Below, piece after piece: positions 15,761 through 40,607 of a stretch of DNA of 64,000 nt. The stretch lies in NCBI GenBank assembly GCA_041483195.1, contig JBGPFC010000023.1:1-64000 (forward strand). Direction: 5' to 3'. A model generated the notes under the pieces. It did no database searches and had not been told where the DNA came from. It was given only the letters and a program-made list of their open reading frames with translations. A program made the position numbers and the translations under genes. This stretch comes from Candidatus Eiseniibacteriota bacterium. Lineage in GTDB: Bacteria; Eisenbacteria; RBG-16-71-46. Position 1 is the stretch's first letter; every line of letters starts with the position of its first letter.

Positions 15761-16081
15761 CTAGAGACCCCGCGCAGCCGCGACCGTCACCACGCCTGCG
15801 ATCCAGCCAAGCCACTGCGCGACCGCGACCGTGAGCGCGATCGTCACCAGCGCCATGCCGGTGGTCGCGAGCACCGGCGAAGTGGTGCGGTAGCGGTAGA
15901 GACGCACGATGAGCAGCGGGATGAACAGCCCCTTGAGGAGCACGAACACCAGCCAGTGGTGCTGTGCGATCCCGGCGAGCAGCGGATTGCCTTCGCGGTT
16001 GCCGAGCCAGTGAATGCCGAGGGCGGTCGCGACCAGATCGAGGCTGTTGGCCACGATGGCGAGAAACAGCACGATGCGCAT
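15761..16081 (-). CDS. Small membrane protein, DUF5658-like
   Basis: 'NSLDLVAT...EGNPLL...LLK' with about three hydrophobic helices; start ATG 16081. Confidence 0.6.
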   Translation of the reverse strand: MRIVLFLAIVANSLDLVATALGIHWLGNREGNPLLAGIAQHHWLVFVLLKGLFIPLLIVRLYRYRTTSPVLATTGMALVTIALTVAVAQWLGWIAGVVTVAAARGL

Positions 16082-16161
16082 GGGGGACGACGCTCCGCTG
16101 GGGGCCGCGGCTCTGCCGGCGTGACGAGCGAACATTCTGACAGAGGCCCGCGGGCGCTTCA

Positions 16162-16953
16162 ATGGCGGACTTGATGAGCCTCGAGACGTATTGGACGATC
16201 GTGGCCGGGGTGCTCGGCCTCGTGATGGGCAGCGCGGTCACAGCGATCGCGTGGCGCGTGCCCCGCCACCGCTCCTGGGTGCGGGGCCGCTCGGCCTGCC
16301 CCTCCTGCGGGACGGCCCTCGGGCCGCGCGATCTGGTCCCGGTGCTCTCGTGGGCGCTCTCGCGGGGGCGCTGCCGCCACTGTGGGGCGGCGATCGCCGG
16401 GCGCTATCCGCTGACCGAGCTGCTGTGCGCGGCATGGGCGGTGCTGCTCTACCGCCACGACGGGTTCACCGTCACCTATCCGCTGCTCGCGCTCTGGGGC
16501 TTCCTGCTGGTCGCGCTGATGTGGATCGATCTGGACTTTCAGCTCCTGCCCGACGTGCTCACGTTTCCGGGGACGCTGATCGCGCTCGCGGCGGCACTGC
16601 TCGCGCCGGGCGGGGCGCATCGCGCGCTGCTCGGCGTCGCCGCCGGGAGCGGCGTGCTCTGGACGCTGGCCTGGCTCTGGATTCACGTGCGGAAGCTGGA
16701 TGGCATGGGCGGCGGCGACATCAAGCTCGCCGCGATGTTCGGCGTCGTGCTGGGCTGGCAGTCGAGCCTGCTAACGCTAATGCTGGCCGCGCTCGCCGGC
16801 AGCATGTGGGGCGCCACCCTCATACTGCGAGGCCGCGGCAACGGGAAGACCGCCCTCCCCTTCGGCACGCTCCTAGCCCCCGCCGCAATGGTGAGCTACC
16901 TCTGGGGCAAGAGCTGGGTCAGCGCCTACCTTAGCTTCATCACCGGCCGCTAG
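16162..16953 (+). CDS. pilD: Prepilin peptidase/N-methyltransferase
   Basis: 'RSACPSC', 'GRCRHC', 'IDLD..LLPD', 'GMGGGDIKL', 'PFG..L'. Confidence 0.93.
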   Translation: MADLMSLETYWTIVAGVLGLVMGSAVTAIAWRVPRHRSWVRGRSACPSCGTALGPRDLVPVLSWALSRGRCRHCGAAIAGRYPLTELLCAAWAVLLYRHDGFTVTYPLLALWGFLLVALMWIDLDFQLLPDVLTFPGTLIALAAALLAPGGAHRALLGVAAGSGVLWTLAWLWIHVRKLDGMGGGDIKLAAMFGVVLGWQSSLLTLMLAALAGSMWGATLILRGRGNGKTALPFGTLLAPAAMVSYLWGKSWVSAYLSFITGR

Positions 16954-16962
16954 CCCCGCGCA

Positions 16963-17044
16963 GCGGGGCGAGGCGGTCCGGGCCTCCCCCAGCCGAAGGT
17001 TTGCTTCTATGAGGCAGGGGGAGGCCCGGACCGCCTCGCCCCGC
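16963..17044. repeat. Long hairpin element, copy A (28-bp perfect arms, 26-nt centre)
   Basis: GCGGGGCGAGGCGGTCCGGGCCTCCCCC - AGCCGAAGGTTTGCTTCTATGAGGCA - GGGGGAGGCCCGGACCGCCTCGCCCCGC. Core shared with 38276-38355. Confidence 0.9.
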
Positions 17045-17073
17045 CGCACCGTCTCCGCACCGTCTCCGCACCG
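17044..17073. repeat. 11-bp tandem direct repeat
   Basis: CCGCACCGTCT twice, then CCGCACCG. Confidence 0.8.
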
Positions 17074-17209
17074 GCGCGAGGCCAACAGTGTGCAGCCACT
17101 TTGCTCCCGCCCGCAGTCGTGCGCTAAGCTACTCGCCGTACCACCGCATCTCGGTGCGGCGCCAAGCGACCCTCCCACATTCGCCCGGCGAACCCTCGAG
17201 GAGCATTCC

Positions 17210-18019
17210 TTGAGCACAGGGCCTGTGCGCCGCCGGTTGACCTCTGCCGGAGCGGAATCCAGGGAGCGATCAGCCGCCGCTCCGATTCGCATCGTCGTCG
17301 CCGATGACCAGCCCATCGACCGTCGCGGCCTCGCCGGGCTGCTCGCAACGCAGTCCGACTTCGAAGTCGTTGGCGAAGCCGCCTCGGGTGAAGAGGCGGT
17401 GGAGCGCTGCGCCCGGCTCAAGCCGGACATCATCGTGATGGACGTTATGATGCCCGGGATGGACGGGGTCGCGGCGCTGCCCGAGCTGCGCATCGCATCG
17501 CCCCTGACCCGCGCGATCATGCTCGCGGAGCGCGGCGAGCGCCGCTGCCTCGTGCTCAATCCGCCGCGGCCCGGCTCCACCGTCGCGCCGCCCTGCGGAC
17601 CCGTCACGGATTGCCTGCAGGTCGCGGTCGCGCGCGGCGCGCACGGCGCGCTGCGCCGCAGCGCGGAACCGGAGGACCTGTTCCGCGCGGTCCGCGCGGT
17701 CGCGGCCGGCAACGCCTGGTATGAGCCCGGCACCGCGGCGCGCATGCTCGAGAAGGCGATGGGGTCCGGAGCGCCGGGGCGCGAGCGGGCGCTCAGCGCG
17801 CGCGAGGTCGAAGTCGCTGGGCACATCGCCGACGGCCACTCGAACAAGGAGATCGGTCGCGCGCTCGGGATCAGCGAGGCCACGGTGAAAAAACACGTGC
17901 GCGGAGTGCTTCATAAGCTCCGGCTCGAAGATCGCCTACAGGTCGGGCTCTACTTCGCGCGCAATCCCCTGCTGCTGGGCTCGCCGCCCCCCGAGCCCGT
18001 CGTCACGCGGCGGCGCTGA
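17210..18019 (+). CDS. NarL/LuxR-family response regulator (atypical receiver)
   Basis: 'IRIVVADD', 'PDIIVMDVMMPGMDG', HTH 'LSAREVEV...SNKEIGRALGISEATVKKHV'. Probable TTG start after GAGGAG. Confidence 0.85.
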   Translation: MSTGPVRRRLTSAGAESRERSAAAPIRIVVADDQPIDRRGLAGLLATQSDFEVVGEAASGEEAVERCARLKPDIIVMDVMMPGMDGVAALPELRIASPLTRAIMLAERGERRCLVLNPPRPGSTVAPPCGPVTDCLQVAVARGAHGALRRSAEPEDLFRAVRAVAAGNAWYEPGTAARMLEKAMGSGAPGRERALSAREVEVAGHIADGHSNKEIGRALGISEATVKKHVRGVLHKLRLEDRLQVGLYFARNPLLLGSPPPEPVVTRRR

Positions 18020-35367: not shown

Positions 35368-35582
35368 GGTAGCGGGCGCGCGTCTCCGGGCAGGCCGTCC
35401 CGGGGCCGACGTCGAAGGCAGCCGAACGACTCCCGAGAGAGGTTCGCCCCTCGCAGGACTCGCTCGGCCGCCGGGCCGTGCCCAGTCATTCGCCCTCATA
35501 TGCCGAGGAGCGGTCACCACCACATCACAGCCGAACCGGCGGTCCCCATCGGGCCGGACGGGCTGCGCGCCGGAAGGAGTTC

Positions 35583-38264
35583 ATGATGGCCCCCCTGCTC
35601 AAGAGTCTGCTCGGGAACGGCTCCAGGGATCGGGAGCACGCGGAGGAGATGCGCGCGATCCTGCACGACATGCAGCAGGAACGCGCCCGCTACCAGACGC
35701 TGCTCGAGAACACGCAGGCCGCTGCGGAACGCCTGGGCCAGCTGGGCGAGCCCATCGCGCAGGCCGAGAGCGGCGTGAGCGCCGTGTCCGAGGGTCTCGC
35801 GAAGCTGCAACAGCGCTTCGAGGCGATGCTCAAACTCTCGACCCAGATCATGAATCTCGACGAGCGCGCGGAGGGCCTCGCGCAGAGTCAGCAGCGGACC
35901 GAGGCACAGATCGCCACCACGCTCGCGGAGGCGGAACGGATCCGCTCGATGTTCGAGGACATCGGCCGGAAGATCGATCTCGCCCTGGAGCTGAAGGACA
36001 AGCTGGGGGCCTTTCTCGAGGTGGAGAAACCGTTCCAGCAGCTGCACGGCGAGGCCGATGCGCTCCGCGGCCAGGTCGAGGGCACGGGTGATCAGCTCGC
36101 CCGCCTGCGAGAGCAGCACGACCGGCTGCTCGATGCGCACAAGCTCGGGATGTCGAAGATGGAGGCGCTGGACCGGCGCCGCGAGGAGTTCAGCCGCGAC
36201 CTGCAGGACAAGGAGCGGCGGGTCGCGAGCGTCGAGGCCTCGCTGCGGGGAATCGACGGCGTCCAGACCACGGTGGACCACGTCAAGCGTGAGATGGGAA
36301 CGCTCAAGGCGCTCGGCGAATTCGTCGCGCAGAAGAGCGCGGCGCTCGAGGCGCAGCGCGACGCGGTCGAGACCGCGCTCACCCGCGCGGACCAGCTGGA
36401 GCGCGCGATGCGCCAGATCGACGCCGGCGTGAGCCAGCAGCAGCAGAACGAGAAGCTGCTGGGCGCGCTGCAGGACGACGTCGCAGCGCTCAGGTCGCTC
36501 CACGAGTCGGTGCTCGAGCGCTCAGGCGAAATCACCCAGCTCCAGCGCGACGCCGACGAGCGGGCCCAGGCGGCCCGGCACGACCTGGCGCTGATGCGGG
36601 ACGAGACGAAGCAGACGCTCGAACGGTTCGACTTCGAGAATCGAGGCCTCGAGTCGGTCAGTCAGCGGGTGGCGGACCTGCGCGCCGCGCTCTCGGACTT
36701 CGAGAACCGCTTCAAGAGCCTGAGTGAGACCGGCCAGATCGTCGCGGAGCTCAAGCCCCAGGCACAGGCCCTGTCCGCCCACTTCCAGACGCTCTCCGAC
36801 CAGGTCGGCCAGGTCGATCAGGACCTCGCGAAACTGCAGGCCCTCCGCCGCGACCTCGACCTGATGAGCCGCACCAGCCGCGACACCGGCGCGCAGGTCG
36901 CACAGATCGAGGCGGCGCGGCCGGCGCTCGAGGCGGCACTCCGCGACCTGGAGCAACTGAGCCGCGTCGACGCGACGGTGAAGGACGCGCTCGAACACAC
37001 CGTGCTCGCCCACGGCGAGATCGTCCGGGTGCGCGAGAGCCAGTCGGATACCCGCTCGTGGCTCGCGAACGTCGAGCAGTCGGTCGGCGCGCTCGGCGAG
37101 CAGGTGGGCCACCTGCAGAAGCTGGCCCCCACGATCGATGTCGCGCACAAGCAGGCGGAGCGCGTGCACGAGTCGATGTCGGCCATCGCGGCGCGCGGCG
37201 CGTTCGTCGAGGACATGCACCGCCGCATGGCGGAGCTCGGGGCACTCACCGGAACGTTGGACGAGCGTGGCCAGCAGTTGCAGACGCGCATGGACGCCGC
37301 CGAGCACCGGTTCGTCGGACTGGCGTCGCACGCCGAAGAAGCGGAAAGCACGGCCAAGACCATCGCGGCGGTCTCATCCGGGGTGATCGAAGCCCGGCGC
37401 GAGGCGGACCAGATCGCGAAGACGGTCGCGGCGATCGAGGCGCGCTGCGAGTCGGTGGAGGAACTCGCCGAGAAGACGCGCGTCCTGAAGCAGGAGCTCG
37501 ATCAGCGGCGGCACACGCTCGCGGAGACGGCGAAGGATCTGAAGCGGGCATCCGAGCTTCGGCAGGAGGCGGCGGCCTCCGCGCAGCAGCTCGGCGAGCT
37601 GTCCAAGCGTCTCGGCGCATCGCTCACATCGGCAGACCAGCGGACCGAAAGCATCGCGGCGCTCTCGACGCAGCTCGAGGACCGCGCGGCCGAGCTGCAG
37701 TCCGTGGAGAAGCGGCTGGATCTGTTCGAGCAGCGCATGGCGAAGTGGGACCTGGTCGAGCCGAACGTCGCAAGGGCGCTGGAACAGATCTCCGCCCGCC
37801 AGGGCACGCTCGAGGCGCTGGAGGCCGATCTCGGCCGGATGTTCGTGATGGCCGAGAAGACGTCCACCGAGGTCCGCGAGATCACATCCGCGCGGCGGGA
37901 GATCGAAGAGAGCCGCGAAGTGCTCGACGACGTGATGGGCCGGCTGCGCGAGGTGCGGGAGACGGCGAGCGCGCTCGACGAGCGCAAGCGTCAGCTCAGC
38001 AAGGCCGAGGAGCGGCTGGCGCGCGCGGATGCGCTGCTGGTCGACGTGCGCTCCGGCATCGAGTCGCTCCAGGGGCAGAAGGTCATCGTCGACCAGGCGG
38101 TCGCGAAGACGAGCTCGCTGCGGTCCATGCTGAAGCAGGCGGAGTCCGTGATCGAAGGGCTGAAGGACGAGCGGAAGATGACGGCCGATGTGCGAGCTGC
38201 GGTGACTTTGGTTCGGAAGAGTCACGATGAAGACGATTCGGAGGACTCGGCGAAGGCTGCTTGA
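35583..38264 (+). CDS. Large orphan coiled-coil protein (~890 aa)
   Basis: GGAAGGAG RBS; continuous E/Q/R/L/A-rich heptads; no Walker motif, TM segment or signal peptide; acidic tail. Confidence 0.8.
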   Translation: MMAPLLKSLLGNGSRDREHAEEMRAILHDMQQERARYQTLLENTQAAAERLGQLGEPIAQAESGVSAVSEGLAKLQQRFEAMLKLSTQIMNLDERAEGLAQSQQRTEAQIATTLAEAERIRSMFEDIGRKIDLALELKDKLGAFLEVEKPFQQLHGEADALRGQVEGTGDQLARLREQHDRLLDAHKLGMSKMEALDRRREEFSRDLQDKERRVASVEASLRGIDGVQTTVDHVKREMGTLKALGEFVAQKSAALEAQRDAVETALTRADQLERAMRQIDAGVSQQQQNEKLLGALQDDVAALRSLHESVLERSGEITQLQRDADERAQAARHDLALMRDETKQTLERFDFENRGLESVSQRVADLRAALSDFENRFKSLSETGQIVAELKPQAQALSAHFQTLSDQVGQVDQDLAKLQALRRDLDLMSRTSRDTGAQVAQIEAARPALEAALRDLEQLSRVDATVKDALEHTVLAHGEIVRVRESQSDTRSWLANVEQSVGALGEQVGHLQKLAPTIDVAHKQAERVHESMSAIAARGAFVEDMHRRMAELGALTGTLDERGQQLQTRMDAAEHRFVGLASHAEEAESTAKTIAAVSSGVIEARREADQIAKTVAAIEARCESVEELAEKTRVLKQELDQRRHTLAETAKDLKRASELRQEAAASAQQLGELSKRLGASLTSADQRTESIAALSTQLEDRAAELQSVEKRLDLFEQRMAKWDLVEPNVARALEQISARQGTLEALEADLGRMFVMAEKTSTEVREITSARREIEESREVLDDVMGRLREVRETASALDERKRQLSKAEERLARADALLVDVRSGIESLQGQKVIVDQAVAKTSSLRSMLKQAESVIEGLKDERKMTADVRAAVTLVRKSHDEDDSEDSAKAA

Positions 38265-38275
38265 AGTAACTAACG

Positions 38276-38355
38276 GCAAACAGCGGCGGCACAGTCTCCC
38301 CCTGCCTCATAGAACAAAACCTTCGGCTGGGGGAGACTGTGCCGCCGCTGTTTGC
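38276..38355. repeat. Long hairpin element, copy B (27-bp perfect arms, 26-nt centre), inverted relative to copy A
   Basis: GCAAACAGCGGCGGCACAGTCTCCCCC - TGCCTCATAGAACAAAACCTTCGGCT - GGGGGAGACTGTGCCGCCGCTGTTTGC. The reverse-complemented centre matches copy A at 24/26. Confidence 0.9.
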
Positions 38356-38458: not shown

Positions 38459-40489
38459 TTATGGCACTTGCGTGGTCGTGGTCTGGTGCCGCTTGATCCA
38501 CTCGATCCAGAGGCGGGCGCGCTCGCGGGAGTTGACGGGATCGGACGAGGCGTGGGTGCGGCCGCGGAACGCTATGAAATCGGTCTCGACGCCGTTGTCC
38601 TTCATCGCGCGATAGAGCGACATCGCCTGCGTGGGCGGCACGCGGAAGTCCTCGATGTTCGCCATCACGCGGGTGGGCGTCTTGATGCGGGTGGCGAACG
38701 TGATCGGGGACTGGGTTCGGTAGAACGCCGCGCGATCTCCGATCCATGGCGATCCCCCGAGGTCGTTCTTCAACGCGATGTTGCCGTCCGAGAAATTGTA
38801 CTGGTCCTCCCAGCTCGTCACCGGCGCACCGGCCACCGCGGCCTGCCACGCGTCGGGGTAGTTGCCGATCAGCCAGCTCGTCATGTATCCGCCGTACGAC
38901 CAGCCCGTCACGGAGACGCGGCTCCCGTCGAGGTACGGGCGCTTGCGCAGCTCGGCGATCCCGGCCATCACGTCGCGCCCGGGACCCGCGCCCCAGTCGC
39001 CGTGGATCGCGGACTGATAGGCGTTGCCGAGATTGTCGCTGCCGCGATAGTTCGGCATGAACACGCACCATCCCTCGCTCGCCATCAGCTGCGCGAGCGA
39101 GTTGAAGCTGGTCTTGGAACTCGCGGTCGGGCCGCCGTGGATGGCGAGCACGATCGGATACGAACGATGCGGATCGAAGTCGGGCGGAGTGACGAGCACT
39201 CCGTCCTCGTCGAACCCGTCGTTCTGCCACGTGACGCGCTCCATGCGCCCGAGCGCGAAATCGGAGGCCCAGCCGTTGAAGTCGGTCACGCGCCGCGGGC
39301 GCGCGCTCGGCGAGTCCATGACGTAGAGCTCGGACGGTCGCGACGCGGTGGTTGCGGAAAACACGATCGCTCCGGTGCGCGCGACGGTGACGTCGTAGCC
39401 GAACGCGCCGTTCACCACCAGGTCGCCGAGCTCGAGCCGCCGGGCCGCGCCATCGAGCTGCTGAATCCAGAGGCCCACGCTGGTTCGGTCGTTGGCGGCG
39501 ACCAGCAGCGAGCGGCCATCGGGCATCCACTCGCCGTTGAAGACCATGCGATCGAGCGCACGCGTGAGGCTGTGTCCCGCGCCGCCCGCCGCCGGCGCCT
39601 GGTACAGCTCGTTCACAACGCCCGCGTCGCCGCGACCGTCGCGCGGAAACCAGTAGGTGATCGAGCGGCCGTCGGGTGAGAAGGCCGGATTGCTCTGGAA
39701 GCGCGCGGCGCCATCGAGCGAGCGGATGCTCCCGCTCTCGACGTCGAGCACGGCGACGCTCACGGAATCCAGCCTGCCGCTCTCCGCAGCGGGGACCCGC
39801 GCGAACGCGATCGACTTGCCGTCGGGCGACCAGCTGAGGTGGGACGGCGGGCTCGAGGGCGGAAGCACGAACTCGAGGCTCCAGGCGCCGCTCGTCAGCC
39901 GCTTCGTCTCGCCCCCGCTAACCGATTGGAGCCAGATGTGCTGCGGCTCGAGGTTCTCGCGAAGGAAGAGGTCCTGGGCGCCGACGTTGAAGGTGGCGAG
40001 ATGACGGGCCTCGCCCGACTGCTTCGGCGTCGTGTCGGCCGCCGCGAACGCGATCGCGCCGCCGTCGGGGCGCCACGCGTAGTGCTCGACGCTGGTGGCC
40101 GAATGCGTGAGACGCCGCGCCTCGCCGCCGCGAAATGGCAGCAGCCACACCTGCATCAGGTCCTTCGCATCGGGCGCGAGGAACGAGATCGTTCCTCCGT
40201 CCGGCGACCAGCGCGGCTCTGCGACGTGCAGGCGCTCGACCGTGAGCGCGCGCGTCGCGCCGCTCGCGAGGTCCGCGACGTAGAGCTCGGACTCGTTCTT
40301 GTCGGAATCGTAGTTCGGCTTCGTCACGATGAACGCGGCGGTCTTGCCGTCGGGCGCGACGCGGGCGCCGCCCACGTTCACGGCCTTGCGCAGCGTCTCG
40401 AGGGTGAAGCGCTCCGACTTCGCGTGAGCGGCCGACGTCGCGACGGCGAGCGTCAGCAGCAGCGTGCCGACAAGGAATCGTGTGCGCAT
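38459..40489 (-). CDS. Secreted S9C peptidase (acylaminoacyl/dipeptidyl peptidase-like)
   Basis: Signal peptide from ATG 40489; WSPDG propeller repeats; 'IHGGP', 'NYRGS', GWSYGG, 'DFRVP', catalytic His. Confidence 0.9.
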   Translation of the reverse strand: MRTRFLVGTLLLTLAVATSAAHAKSERFTLETLRKAVNVGGARVAPDGKTAAFIVTKPNYDSDKNESELYVADLASGATRALTVERLHVAEPRWSPDGGTISFLAPDAKDLMQVWLLPFRGGEARRLTHSATSVEHYAWRPDGGAIAFAAADTTPKQSGEARHLATFNVGAQDLFLRENLEPQHIWLQSVSGGETKRLTSGAWSLEFVLPPSSPPSHLSWSPDGKSIAFARVPAAESGRLDSVSVAVLDVESGSIRSLDGAARFQSNPAFSPDGRSITYWFPRDGRGDAGVVNELYQAPAAGGAGHSLTRALDRMVFNGEWMPDGRSLLVAANDRTSVGLWIQQLDGAARRLELGDLVVNGAFGYDVTVARTGAIVFSATTASRPSELYVMDSPSARPRRVTDFNGWASDFALGRMERVTWQNDGFDEDGVLVTPPDFDPHRSYPIVLAIHGGPTASSKTSFNSLAQLMASEGWCVFMPNYRGSDNLGNAYQSAIHGDWGAGPGRDVMAGIAELRKRPYLDGSRVSVTGWSYGGYMTSWLIGNYPDAWQAAVAGAPVTSWEDQYNFSDGNIALKNDLGGSPWIGDRAAFYRTQSPITFATRIKTPTRVMANIEDFRVPPTQAMSLYRAMKDNGVETDFIAFRGRTHASSDPVNSRERARLWIEWIKRHQTTTTQVP

Positions 40490-40607
40490 GACGGATCTCC
40501 CGGGTGGATGGACGAACGATGGGGAGCAGGGTAGTGCAGTTCGCGCCGCCGCGCATCGGGGATTCGCCGGGAGCCCCGCACGCCGATGCGCCATCGCGCG
40601 CCCGTCC

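Follow-up and report, generated by a model that had tools for sequence, protein, structure and literature searches.

A dispersed family of hairpins with a conserved tip and fast-diverging, paired arms in Candidatus Eiseniibacteriota

Two long hairpins in a 64,000-nucleotide stretch of DNA from a Candidatus Eiseniibacteriota bacterium (assembly GCA_041483195.1, contig JBGPFC010000023.1; hereafter the window) raise the question of what kind of element keeps its centre while its arms differ from copy to copy and still pair. A preliminary description made from the sequence had reported a perfect 28-bp inverted repeat directly after a pilD gene (copy A) and a perfect 27-bp inverted repeat on the other strand (copy B), which share a 40-nt core between differing outer arms. 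A census of hairpins recovered both inverted repeats. The two 40-nt cores are identical at 38 of 40 positions, with two differences, and the outer arms are unrelated to each other and pair perfectly within each copy, as had been described. A core pattern with up to three mismatches allowed matched the window twice, compared to no match in each of 100 shuffled sequences. We find that these hairpins belong to a real and undescribed family of unusual architecture, probably a novel variety of small mobile DNA palindrome.

A hairpin family in two species of one genus

In the genome to which the window belongs (G000; 4.17 Mb in 93 contigs, 70% G+C), fuzzy and degenerate searches found nine copies on seven contigs, and their arms were all different. 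The first core pattern required TTT at one position and was therefore blind to a second genome of the same genus (G003), in which the core reads TTC there. A BLAST search with the locus against same-genus genomes exposed hairpin-length matches in G003, and the pattern was then widened. G003 also carries nine copies, eight of them found by pattern and a degenerate ninth by a covariance model (R1). Copies lost at contig ends escape these per-genome counts. The preliminary description had proposed a dispersed family with a conserved core and complementary, differing arms, and the further copies in both genomes bear it out.

The census covered the whole of G000 and took in every hairpin with 12 or more perfect base pairs and a loop of up to 60 nt, 284 in all. 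The six longest perfect stems (27 to 33 bp) all carry the core, as do eight of the top 12. Ordinary hairpins in this genome have stems of 12 to 16 bp, which indicates that the long stem is part of the element and not a prior terminator that the core had entered.

Outside these two genomes the element was not found. Among 89 genomes of the family, the pattern with at most one mismatch matched only G000 and G003, eight times each, and R1 found the same two genomes only, both in this set and among 151 genomes drawn across the phylum. At E ≤ 1, R1 gave no match in four further genomes (G001, G002, G004 and G005). The element is present in two of the four species of one genus. The exact widened pattern, searched in one genome per species for 185,579 species, matched seven loci of the G003 record and five others, and it matched one locus in metagenome contigs. 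None of these six outside loci has inverted-repeat arms, so we regard them as chance matches. The IMG/VR viral contigs gave no match with the first, narrow TTT pattern, the only one used there, which also misses the G003 variant. Searches of 50,697 records of phages and 72,556 of plasmids gave no match to copy A as a whole, the only copy whose arms were tried.

The family does not appear to have been described, as the preliminary description had supposed. A search of the 64-kb window with Rfam 15 gave no match above the gathering threshold, and in sensitive mode positions 16900-17110 matched only generic microRNA-precursor hairpin models, the best at 45.1 bits against a threshold of 90. No match to a known Rfam or repetitive extragenic palindromic (REP) family was thus obtained, further copies exist, and their arms are complementary. 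Two other G000 hairpins (C62:42-106 and C44:1586-1650) have 13-bp stems around a similar 39-nt loop (CCGTGGAAGA...CTACCAC) and may represent a second small repeat family.

Structure, descent and insertion sites of the copies

Sixteen copies were aligned without gaps over 96 columns, in which column i pairs with column 97-i. The element is ~85 to 95 bp long, with a stem of 27 to 33 bp and a conserved 24-nt tip. In the 33-pair stem, 94.7% of the cells were paired and 29 of the 33 pairs had changed on both sides. For the full structure of 37 pairs, 93.9% of the cells were paired, compared to 44 to 51% in slid controls, and none of 500 shuffles reached the observed values. The arms within a copy were complementary at 430 of 448 positions (96%), and 10 of 16 arm mismatches fell at one place, a purine-purine pair just under a GCC:GGC (or GGCC:GGCC) helix.

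Conservation was distributed unevenly along the element. The pairwise identity of the 16 copies, expressed as ungapped column identity (a gapped measure between copies gave 0.70, as it did for shuffled arms), was 0.88 in the 24-nt core and 0.99 within G003, against a composition expectation of 0.26. The corresponding values were 0.53 against 0.35 in the inner arm, 0.62 against 0.51 in the middle arm and 0.48 against 0.45 in the outer 10 bp. This gradient suggests that constraint acts on the tip. The arms are G-rich 5' of the core in all copies except copy B, and the outer octamer GCGGGGCG opens four of the eight aligned G000 copies.

The centre had been described as a long shared loop. Its conservation is confirmed, but it is not unpaired: the 26-nt 'loop' is closed by GCC:GGC past a single A.A mismatch, and RNAalifold added one covarying pair inside it (columns 42 and 55), which is A:U in 13 copies and C:G in three. 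These two mirror-placed, complementary columns are the sole differences between two core subtypes, and the covariation rests on one subfamily and hence on one evolutionary event. By our own reading of the sequence, not the output of a tool, the tip helix would continue on the strand reading GCCGAAGG with GCC:GGC, G.A, A.G, M:K, G.A and G.U around an 8-nt loop UUYRCYUC, whereas the opposite strand would place C.U and A.C at the same positions and would form no structure. The protein-recognised single-stranded motif suggested at the outset is plausible for the tip. The stem contains four G.U cells compared to two A.C/C.A cells. Two other tip folds were rejected. A k-turn needs a 4-nt bulge, its C-stem is broken in the GACGG subtype, and the covarying pair is 42:55; a mini-helix of columns 40-43 with 49-52 left 6 of 16 cells unpaired at 42:50 and had no pair changed on both sides.

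The copies do not have the form of intrinsic terminators, which combine a hairpin with a T/U run. In the 16 aligned copies, the 8 nt past the stem never include a T run, and a terminator scan of positions 16700-17300 found no site. Copies may nevertheless act by hairpin-only termination in this GC-rich host.

Comparisons among the copies indicated what is duplicated. Whole arms are common to sister copies at unrelated loci (L029 and L041 in G003; C20 and C40b, C43 and C57, and C26 and C30 in G000), and where sisters differ, both arms show the change in mirror image. In our reading, C26 and C30 appear to differ by a mirrored one-base insertion or deletion. Arm identity declines gradually outward from the core, with no drop at the core edge. 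Together with the shared sister arms, this gradual decay indicates that the whole hairpin is the copied unit. The arms, which had been taken to be exchangeable, are thus fast-diverging and change symmetrically, and they are neither exchanged freely nor made afresh at each target. A second full-length match in G000 was found for none of the arms, only GC-rich matches of 16 to 20 nt.

Two G000 loci show larger symmetric structures. At C43:1-232 (locus L038), a 232-nt palindrome with halves 85% identical is centred on the copy and is cut by the contig end. Its distal half encodes, in inverted form, the last 22 codons of the NAD-dependent epimerase-type gene next to it, with 91% amino-acid identity. 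The few differences appeared mostly synonymous in a codon-by-codon reading, and the gene has no second copy elsewhere in the assembly. At C40:31604-31766 (locus L034), two full tandem copies lie at the contig end with a third, degenerate core (18 of 24 positions identical) between them, giving an arm-core-arm-core'-arm-core array with a 54-nt period, which may continue past the contig end. The C43 palindrome and the C40 array hint that fold-back copying sometimes exceeds the arms.

Counterparts in G000 exist for the flanks of seven G003 copies out of the eight that were searched (weakly for L037, and for a single side of L039 and L041). A base-by-base comparison of four G003 sites (L035, L029, L033 and L031) showed no such element in G000, and the G003 site corresponding to copy A, behind pilD, has only a small ordinary hairpin. 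Insertion sites are therefore not shared between the two genomes at the sites compared. Copies occur in both orientations to the nearest gene. A stop codon is found no more than 15 nt away from several of the intergenic copies, which may lie on either side of it and often stand between convergent genes: a co-oriented stop precedes copy A and the copies at C43 in G000 and at L027 and L035 in G003, and the stop of a converging gene follows copy B and the copies at C26, L027 and L035. Copies C20 and C57 lie in 5' regions, and the C40 pair is antisense upstream of a gene.

Of the nine G003 copies, four are in frame within genes, two in sense and two in antisense orientation. Two of them occupy the two linkers of an E2 acyltransferase gene, one in each orientation, between the lipoyl (residues 4-76), E3-binding (141-176) and catalytic (217-445) domains; the antisense copy reads GLIEANLRPG and the sense copy PEGRFASMTPG. 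The third falls within a DASS transporter, in its central loop, and the fourth follows the signal peptide of a secreted protein of 558 aa, whose G000 orthologue lacks ~75 nt at the insert position. The E2 orthologues of five relatives are without the motif and have linkers of about equal length. Among the 16 aligned copies, 61 of 96 reading frames are open, and the two frames that are used by genes are open in all 16. Only the ~8 to 10 central residues (GLIEANLRPG or GRRFASMRPG) are constant in frame. The G000 E2 orthologue is split by the assembly, with its 5' half missing. Its linker before the catalytic domain, at the position of the second E2 copy of G003, contains an imperfect hairpin in frame (C79:1-100; -63 kcal/mol). 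The 39-nt centre of this hairpin differs from the core and recurs nowhere else in G000; the hairpin may be a decayed orthologue of the G003 copy.

Possible origins of the family

We infer, with slightly better than even confidence, that the family is a genus-restricted, non-autonomous palindromic mobile repeat resembling REPINs, MITEs (miniature transposable elements with inverted repeats) and Rickettsia palindromic elements (RPEs), that it is recognised by its tip, and that its arms are kept symmetric by template switching. The presence in two of four species, the species-specific core variants, the unshared sites, the use of both orientations and the restriction to tolerant sites fit a selfish repeat better than a conserved regulator. 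A trans-acting protein would read the tip when a single strand has folded or a cruciform is extruded, and the stem would be free in sequence so long as the arms pair. The arms would stay mirror-symmetric by intrastrand template switching (quasi-palindrome correction), or one arm would be re-synthesised from the other, and a substitution or indel in one arm would be lost or mirrored in a single step. Copies would persist where a stable GC-rich hairpin is harmless, just past stop codons and in flexible protein linkers. Past stops, a probable side effect would be to end or stabilise transcripts; in linkers, Gly would be encoded by the G-rich arm and Pro/Ala by the C-rich arm.

Several points weigh against this reading. 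No target-site duplication was seen in the flanks by eye, and no insertion polymorphism was seen at copy A, the one site examined, in four sequencing runs (X3 and X4 bridge it; X2 is largely uncovered there). No transposase or nuclease is linked to the element, and a search for TnpB found none. The case for mobility rests on two species with genes ~73 to 88% identical in DNA, and gain and loss of a copy look alike because intergenic DNA hardly aligns between G000 and G003. Only ~9 copies are assembled per genome, and both genomes are metagenome bins. A host function could equally hold the tip conserved, and the excess of G.U and the one-strand tip pairs fit a role in the transcript as well as a single-stranded DNA intermediate.

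Co-occurrence with HUH/RAYT or reverse transcriptase genes, which had been put forward as a check, did not supply a partner. A search for HUH genes that covered PF01797 found a single-copy Y1/HUH gene in G000 (C45:5999-6337; locus L042:1447-1938, minus strand) encoding 163 aa with an HAH motif. It scored 74.6 bits with the IS200 model (cut-off 55) and 30.2 bits with the RAYT model (cut-off 80), and it is present and syntenic in G000, G001 and G003. No hairpin of this family lies within 1.5 kb of it, and no copy was found in G001. These results do not support a RAYT link. The gene looks domesticated and is a weak candidate partner at best, since it is IS200-type, unflanked and present in the copy-free G001. 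A reverse transcriptase link was rejected for G000: its sole RVT_1 hit, on another contig (C4:36318-37727; locus L083:1153-2562, minus strand), is a DRT2 defence gene, coding for a 469-aa Drt2 reverse transcriptase with an NCBIfam score of 392.2 bits (cut-off 390) and a PADLOC score of 404 bits, and it has no visible tie to the hairpins.

A structured RNA that serves the host is a somewhat unlikely alternative. The hairpin would then be a 3'-untranslated region or terminator structure whose tip binds an RNase, an RNA chaperone or a double-stranded-RNA-binding factor, so that it ends, stabilises or marks transcripts. The positions of several copies directly at stop codons, the extreme stability of the stems and the G.U cells of the stem are consistent with such a role, as are the tandem G.A pairs, the covarying pair and the G.U pair of the tip that form on one strand only. 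REP sequences in general have been argued to act as RNA elements downstream of genes in the part of PMC3733652 that was available (sources cited by PMC number are cited throughout for such a part), where intragenic REPs are also mentioned. However, the orientation to the nearest gene is inconsistent, the E2 mRNA of G003 carries the element in both orientations, and the 5'-region copies and the antisense C40 pair do not lie where a 3' structure would. No T run or predicted terminator accompanies the hairpins. Furthermore, two of the three other genomes of the genus and the rest of the family have no copy, and the sites in G000 and G003 are unshared, unlike those of a conserved cis-regulator.

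Alternatively, a short mobile or recombinogenic core might nucleate fold-back (snap-back) synthesis, from which the arms would arise, at insertion or later, as inverted copies of the sequence next to it. The outer 10 bp, which are at composition level between copies yet perfectly paired, and the C43 locus, where the inverted similarity runs far past the arms to the contig end, would fit this origin, and template switching can expand inverted repeats (PMC13100816, available part). However, sister copies at unrelated loci share their entire arms, the arms have a common polarity (G-rich 5', C-rich 3') and the octamer described above recurs regardless of locus. Identity decays without a fall at the core edge, and the empty sites that were compared have no recognisable single arm, within the limits that divergence sets on this comparison. 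We therefore consider flank copying quite unlikely as the general origin of the arms. The earlier idea of a core that inverts its flank is largely contradicted for the arms as a whole, and it could still explain the outermost pairs and the C43 palindrome.

The geometry, with a conserved 24-nt unit and variable segments of ~30 nt, also fits a scaffold that presents variable guide segments of ~20 to 30 nt in the manner of CRISPR or short hairpin RNAs, and the three core-like units with their regular period at the end of C40 are reminiscent of an array. However, the two 'segments' of a copy merely complement each other, the arms of sisters are related by descent, and four copies lie in frame as protein linkers. 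Neither the second full-length arm match within the genome nor the phage or plasmid match of copy A that variable guides would lead one to expect was found. Thus, the scaffold with variable ~20-nt segments proposed in the preliminary description is very improbable. In terms of CRISPR, the segments flanking the core are mutually complementary and copy A had no foreign match; cas genes were not searched for.

An assembly or library artefact, either a fold-back chimera or an adapter hairpin, had to be weighed as well. In G000, four of the nine copies have a contig end within 150 nt, and the source run's own contigs end inside copy A, at 16974 and 16984. However, such breaks are the usual effect of perfect palindromes on assembly graphs, and contigs of two other sediment runs span copy A with zero differences (X3 record 17, 16000-17091; X4 record 31, 16804-18000), which demonstrates that copy A is real DNA; for this copy the artefact reading is already refuted. 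The independently assembled G003 has its nine copies at other loci and with its own core variant, and the reading frames stay open in conserved genes. For the family as a whole we give an artefact practically no credence.

The favoured mobile repeat was compared with known systems of small palindromes. REPINs are likewise short non-coding palindromes that fold into one long hairpin and are dispersed mainly just outside genes. Changes are compensated across the two sides of the hairpin in both, and such compensatory changes are common in REPIN hairpins according to the available part of PMC3116915. Both are thought to move as single-stranded hairpins, and G000 also has a single-copy, vertically inherited Y1/HUH gene. 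However, REPIN ends are conserved and the spacer less so, which is the reverse of the pattern found here, where the core is conserved and the outer arms are near the composition expectation. No conserved GTAG/CGTC tag was seen by eye, REPINs have tens to hundreds of extragenic copies compared to nine assembled per genome here, four of them intragenic in G003, and a cognate RAYT is flanked by the repeat, whereas the Y1 gene is IS200-type and unflanked.

The RPEs share with the family the occurrence both between genes and in frame in unrelated genes. They insert in frame and add a peptide at tolerated protein positions (PMC10969869, available part, a review that cites Ogata et al.). However, RPEs are ~150 bp long, conserved over their full length and encode a conserved peptide, as opposed to the present element, which is constant only in its centre. 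Their host phylum is unrelated, so that homology is not expected, and the comparison, made by description only, shows alike behaviour without demonstrable homology. MITEs derived from insertion sequences resemble the element in their small size, their lack of autonomy, their inverted-repeat arms and the stable stem-loops that their transcripts form (PMC10969869, available part). However, the conserved part of MITEs is their transposase-bound terminal inverted repeats, and their young copies are bordered by direct target duplications, neither of which was seen here; no direct repeats were seen by eye in the flanks of 17 copies, and no parent insertion sequence was found. MITEs are typically AT-rich, whereas the element is GC-rich.

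The hairpins at the nick sites of HUH Rep proteins, for example in the origins of circular Rep-encoding single-stranded DNA viruses, resemble the element in having a conserved loop on a free but paired stem. The enzyme reads the loop of the extruded hairpin, which has a 9-nt motif. However, these origins are single and lie on small replicons, as opposed to nine chromosomal copies with a structured 24-nt tip. The constraint on such a tip, unlike the usual transposase-bound conserved arms, points to an apex-reading protein.

Template switching creates perfect hairpin stems, homogenises their arms and expands them, as described in the available parts of PMC8794818, PMC13100816, PMC8604942 and PMC7202029. 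Switching at quasi-palindromes accounts for the mirrored substitutions and indels and possibly for the long C43 palindrome. It is, however, a mutational process and not an element, and it leaves the conservation of the tip and the dispersal unexplained. The family would be an unusually clean natural record of one-step, mirror-symmetric stem change, as template switching predicts.

A more far-reaching proposal, which we consider unlikely, is a new class of self-symmetrising mobile hairpin, in which an enzyme reads only the structured, strand-specific tip, and each copying event, or fold-back synthesis soon after it, rebuilds one arm from the other. Its stem would drift freely yet remain perfect and could grow outward by flank copying, and such hairpins could seed inverted gene duplications like that at C43 and alternating arm-core arrays like that at C40. 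If the copies are mobile as we favour, in-frame 'selfish DNA in linkers', best known in Rickettsia, would now extend to an uncultured sediment lineage. The hairpins also break short-read assemblies, as the contig-end copies and the split E2 gene illustrate, and they risk being miscalled as terminators or small RNAs.

Copies A and B in the window

The features of the two copies and their neighbouring genes are collected in Table 1. The pilD stop codon is TAG at 16951-16953, and the perfect stem of copy A starts 9 nt downstream; weaker pairing extends out to 16960-17047. R1 scored copy A at 92.7 bits on the plus strand and 56.5 bits on the minus strand, and its RNA folding gave a minimum free energy (MFE) of -87.9 kcal/mol (z of -10.7 versus shuffles). 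The core of copy B spans 38303-38328, read on the minus strand, and the copy scored 83.1 bits with R1 (MFE of -69.0 kcal/mol, z of -12.4). The S9 peptidase gene, which shares its strand with the core of copy B, stops ~100 nt upstream of the copy. The coiled-coil-type open reading frame (ORF) on the other side had weak Pfam matches with no stretch passing alone (BLOC1_2 at 39.5 bits with a cut-off of 33.4, and Laminin_II below cut-off).

Table 1. Hairpin copies in the 64-kb window, their parts and the adjacent genes
Feature	Position	Strand	Remarks
pilD-type prepilin peptidase gene (context)	16162..16953	+	Pfam A24_N_bact 91.4 bits, Peptidase_A24 62.7 bits
Copy A, whole hairpin	16963..17044	+	28-bp perfect stem, 26-nt centre (hairpin census)
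Copy A, 5' arm, G-rich	16963..16990	+	27/28 positions complementary to 3' arm, A.A position counted
Copy A, tip	16991..17016	+	A.A mismatch 16991/17016, GCC:GGC helix, proposed non-Watson-Crick pairs (G.A, A.G, then G.A, G.U) around the covarying A:U, 8-nt end loop
Copy A, conserved 24-nt core	16992-17015	+	Within tip
Copy A, 3' arm, C-rich	17017..17044	+	Pairs with 5' arm
Copy B, whole hairpin	38276..38355	-	27-bp perfect stem, 26-nt centre, between convergent genes
S9-family peptidase gene (context)	38459..40594	-	Pfam Peptidase_S9 151.7 bits
Long coiled-coil-type ORF (context)	35478..38264	+	Converges on copy B; stop ~6-11 nt from hairpin

Directly after copy A, at 17045-17075, an 11-nt unit (CCGCACCGTCT) is repeated in tandem ~2.8 times. 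Contigs of the runs X1 and X2 match the right half of copy A (17005-17058) and then diverge to other sequence, and a 15-nt motif of this continuation is absent from the G000 assembly. These contigs may come from a further, unassembled copy that shares the arm, or from a relative.

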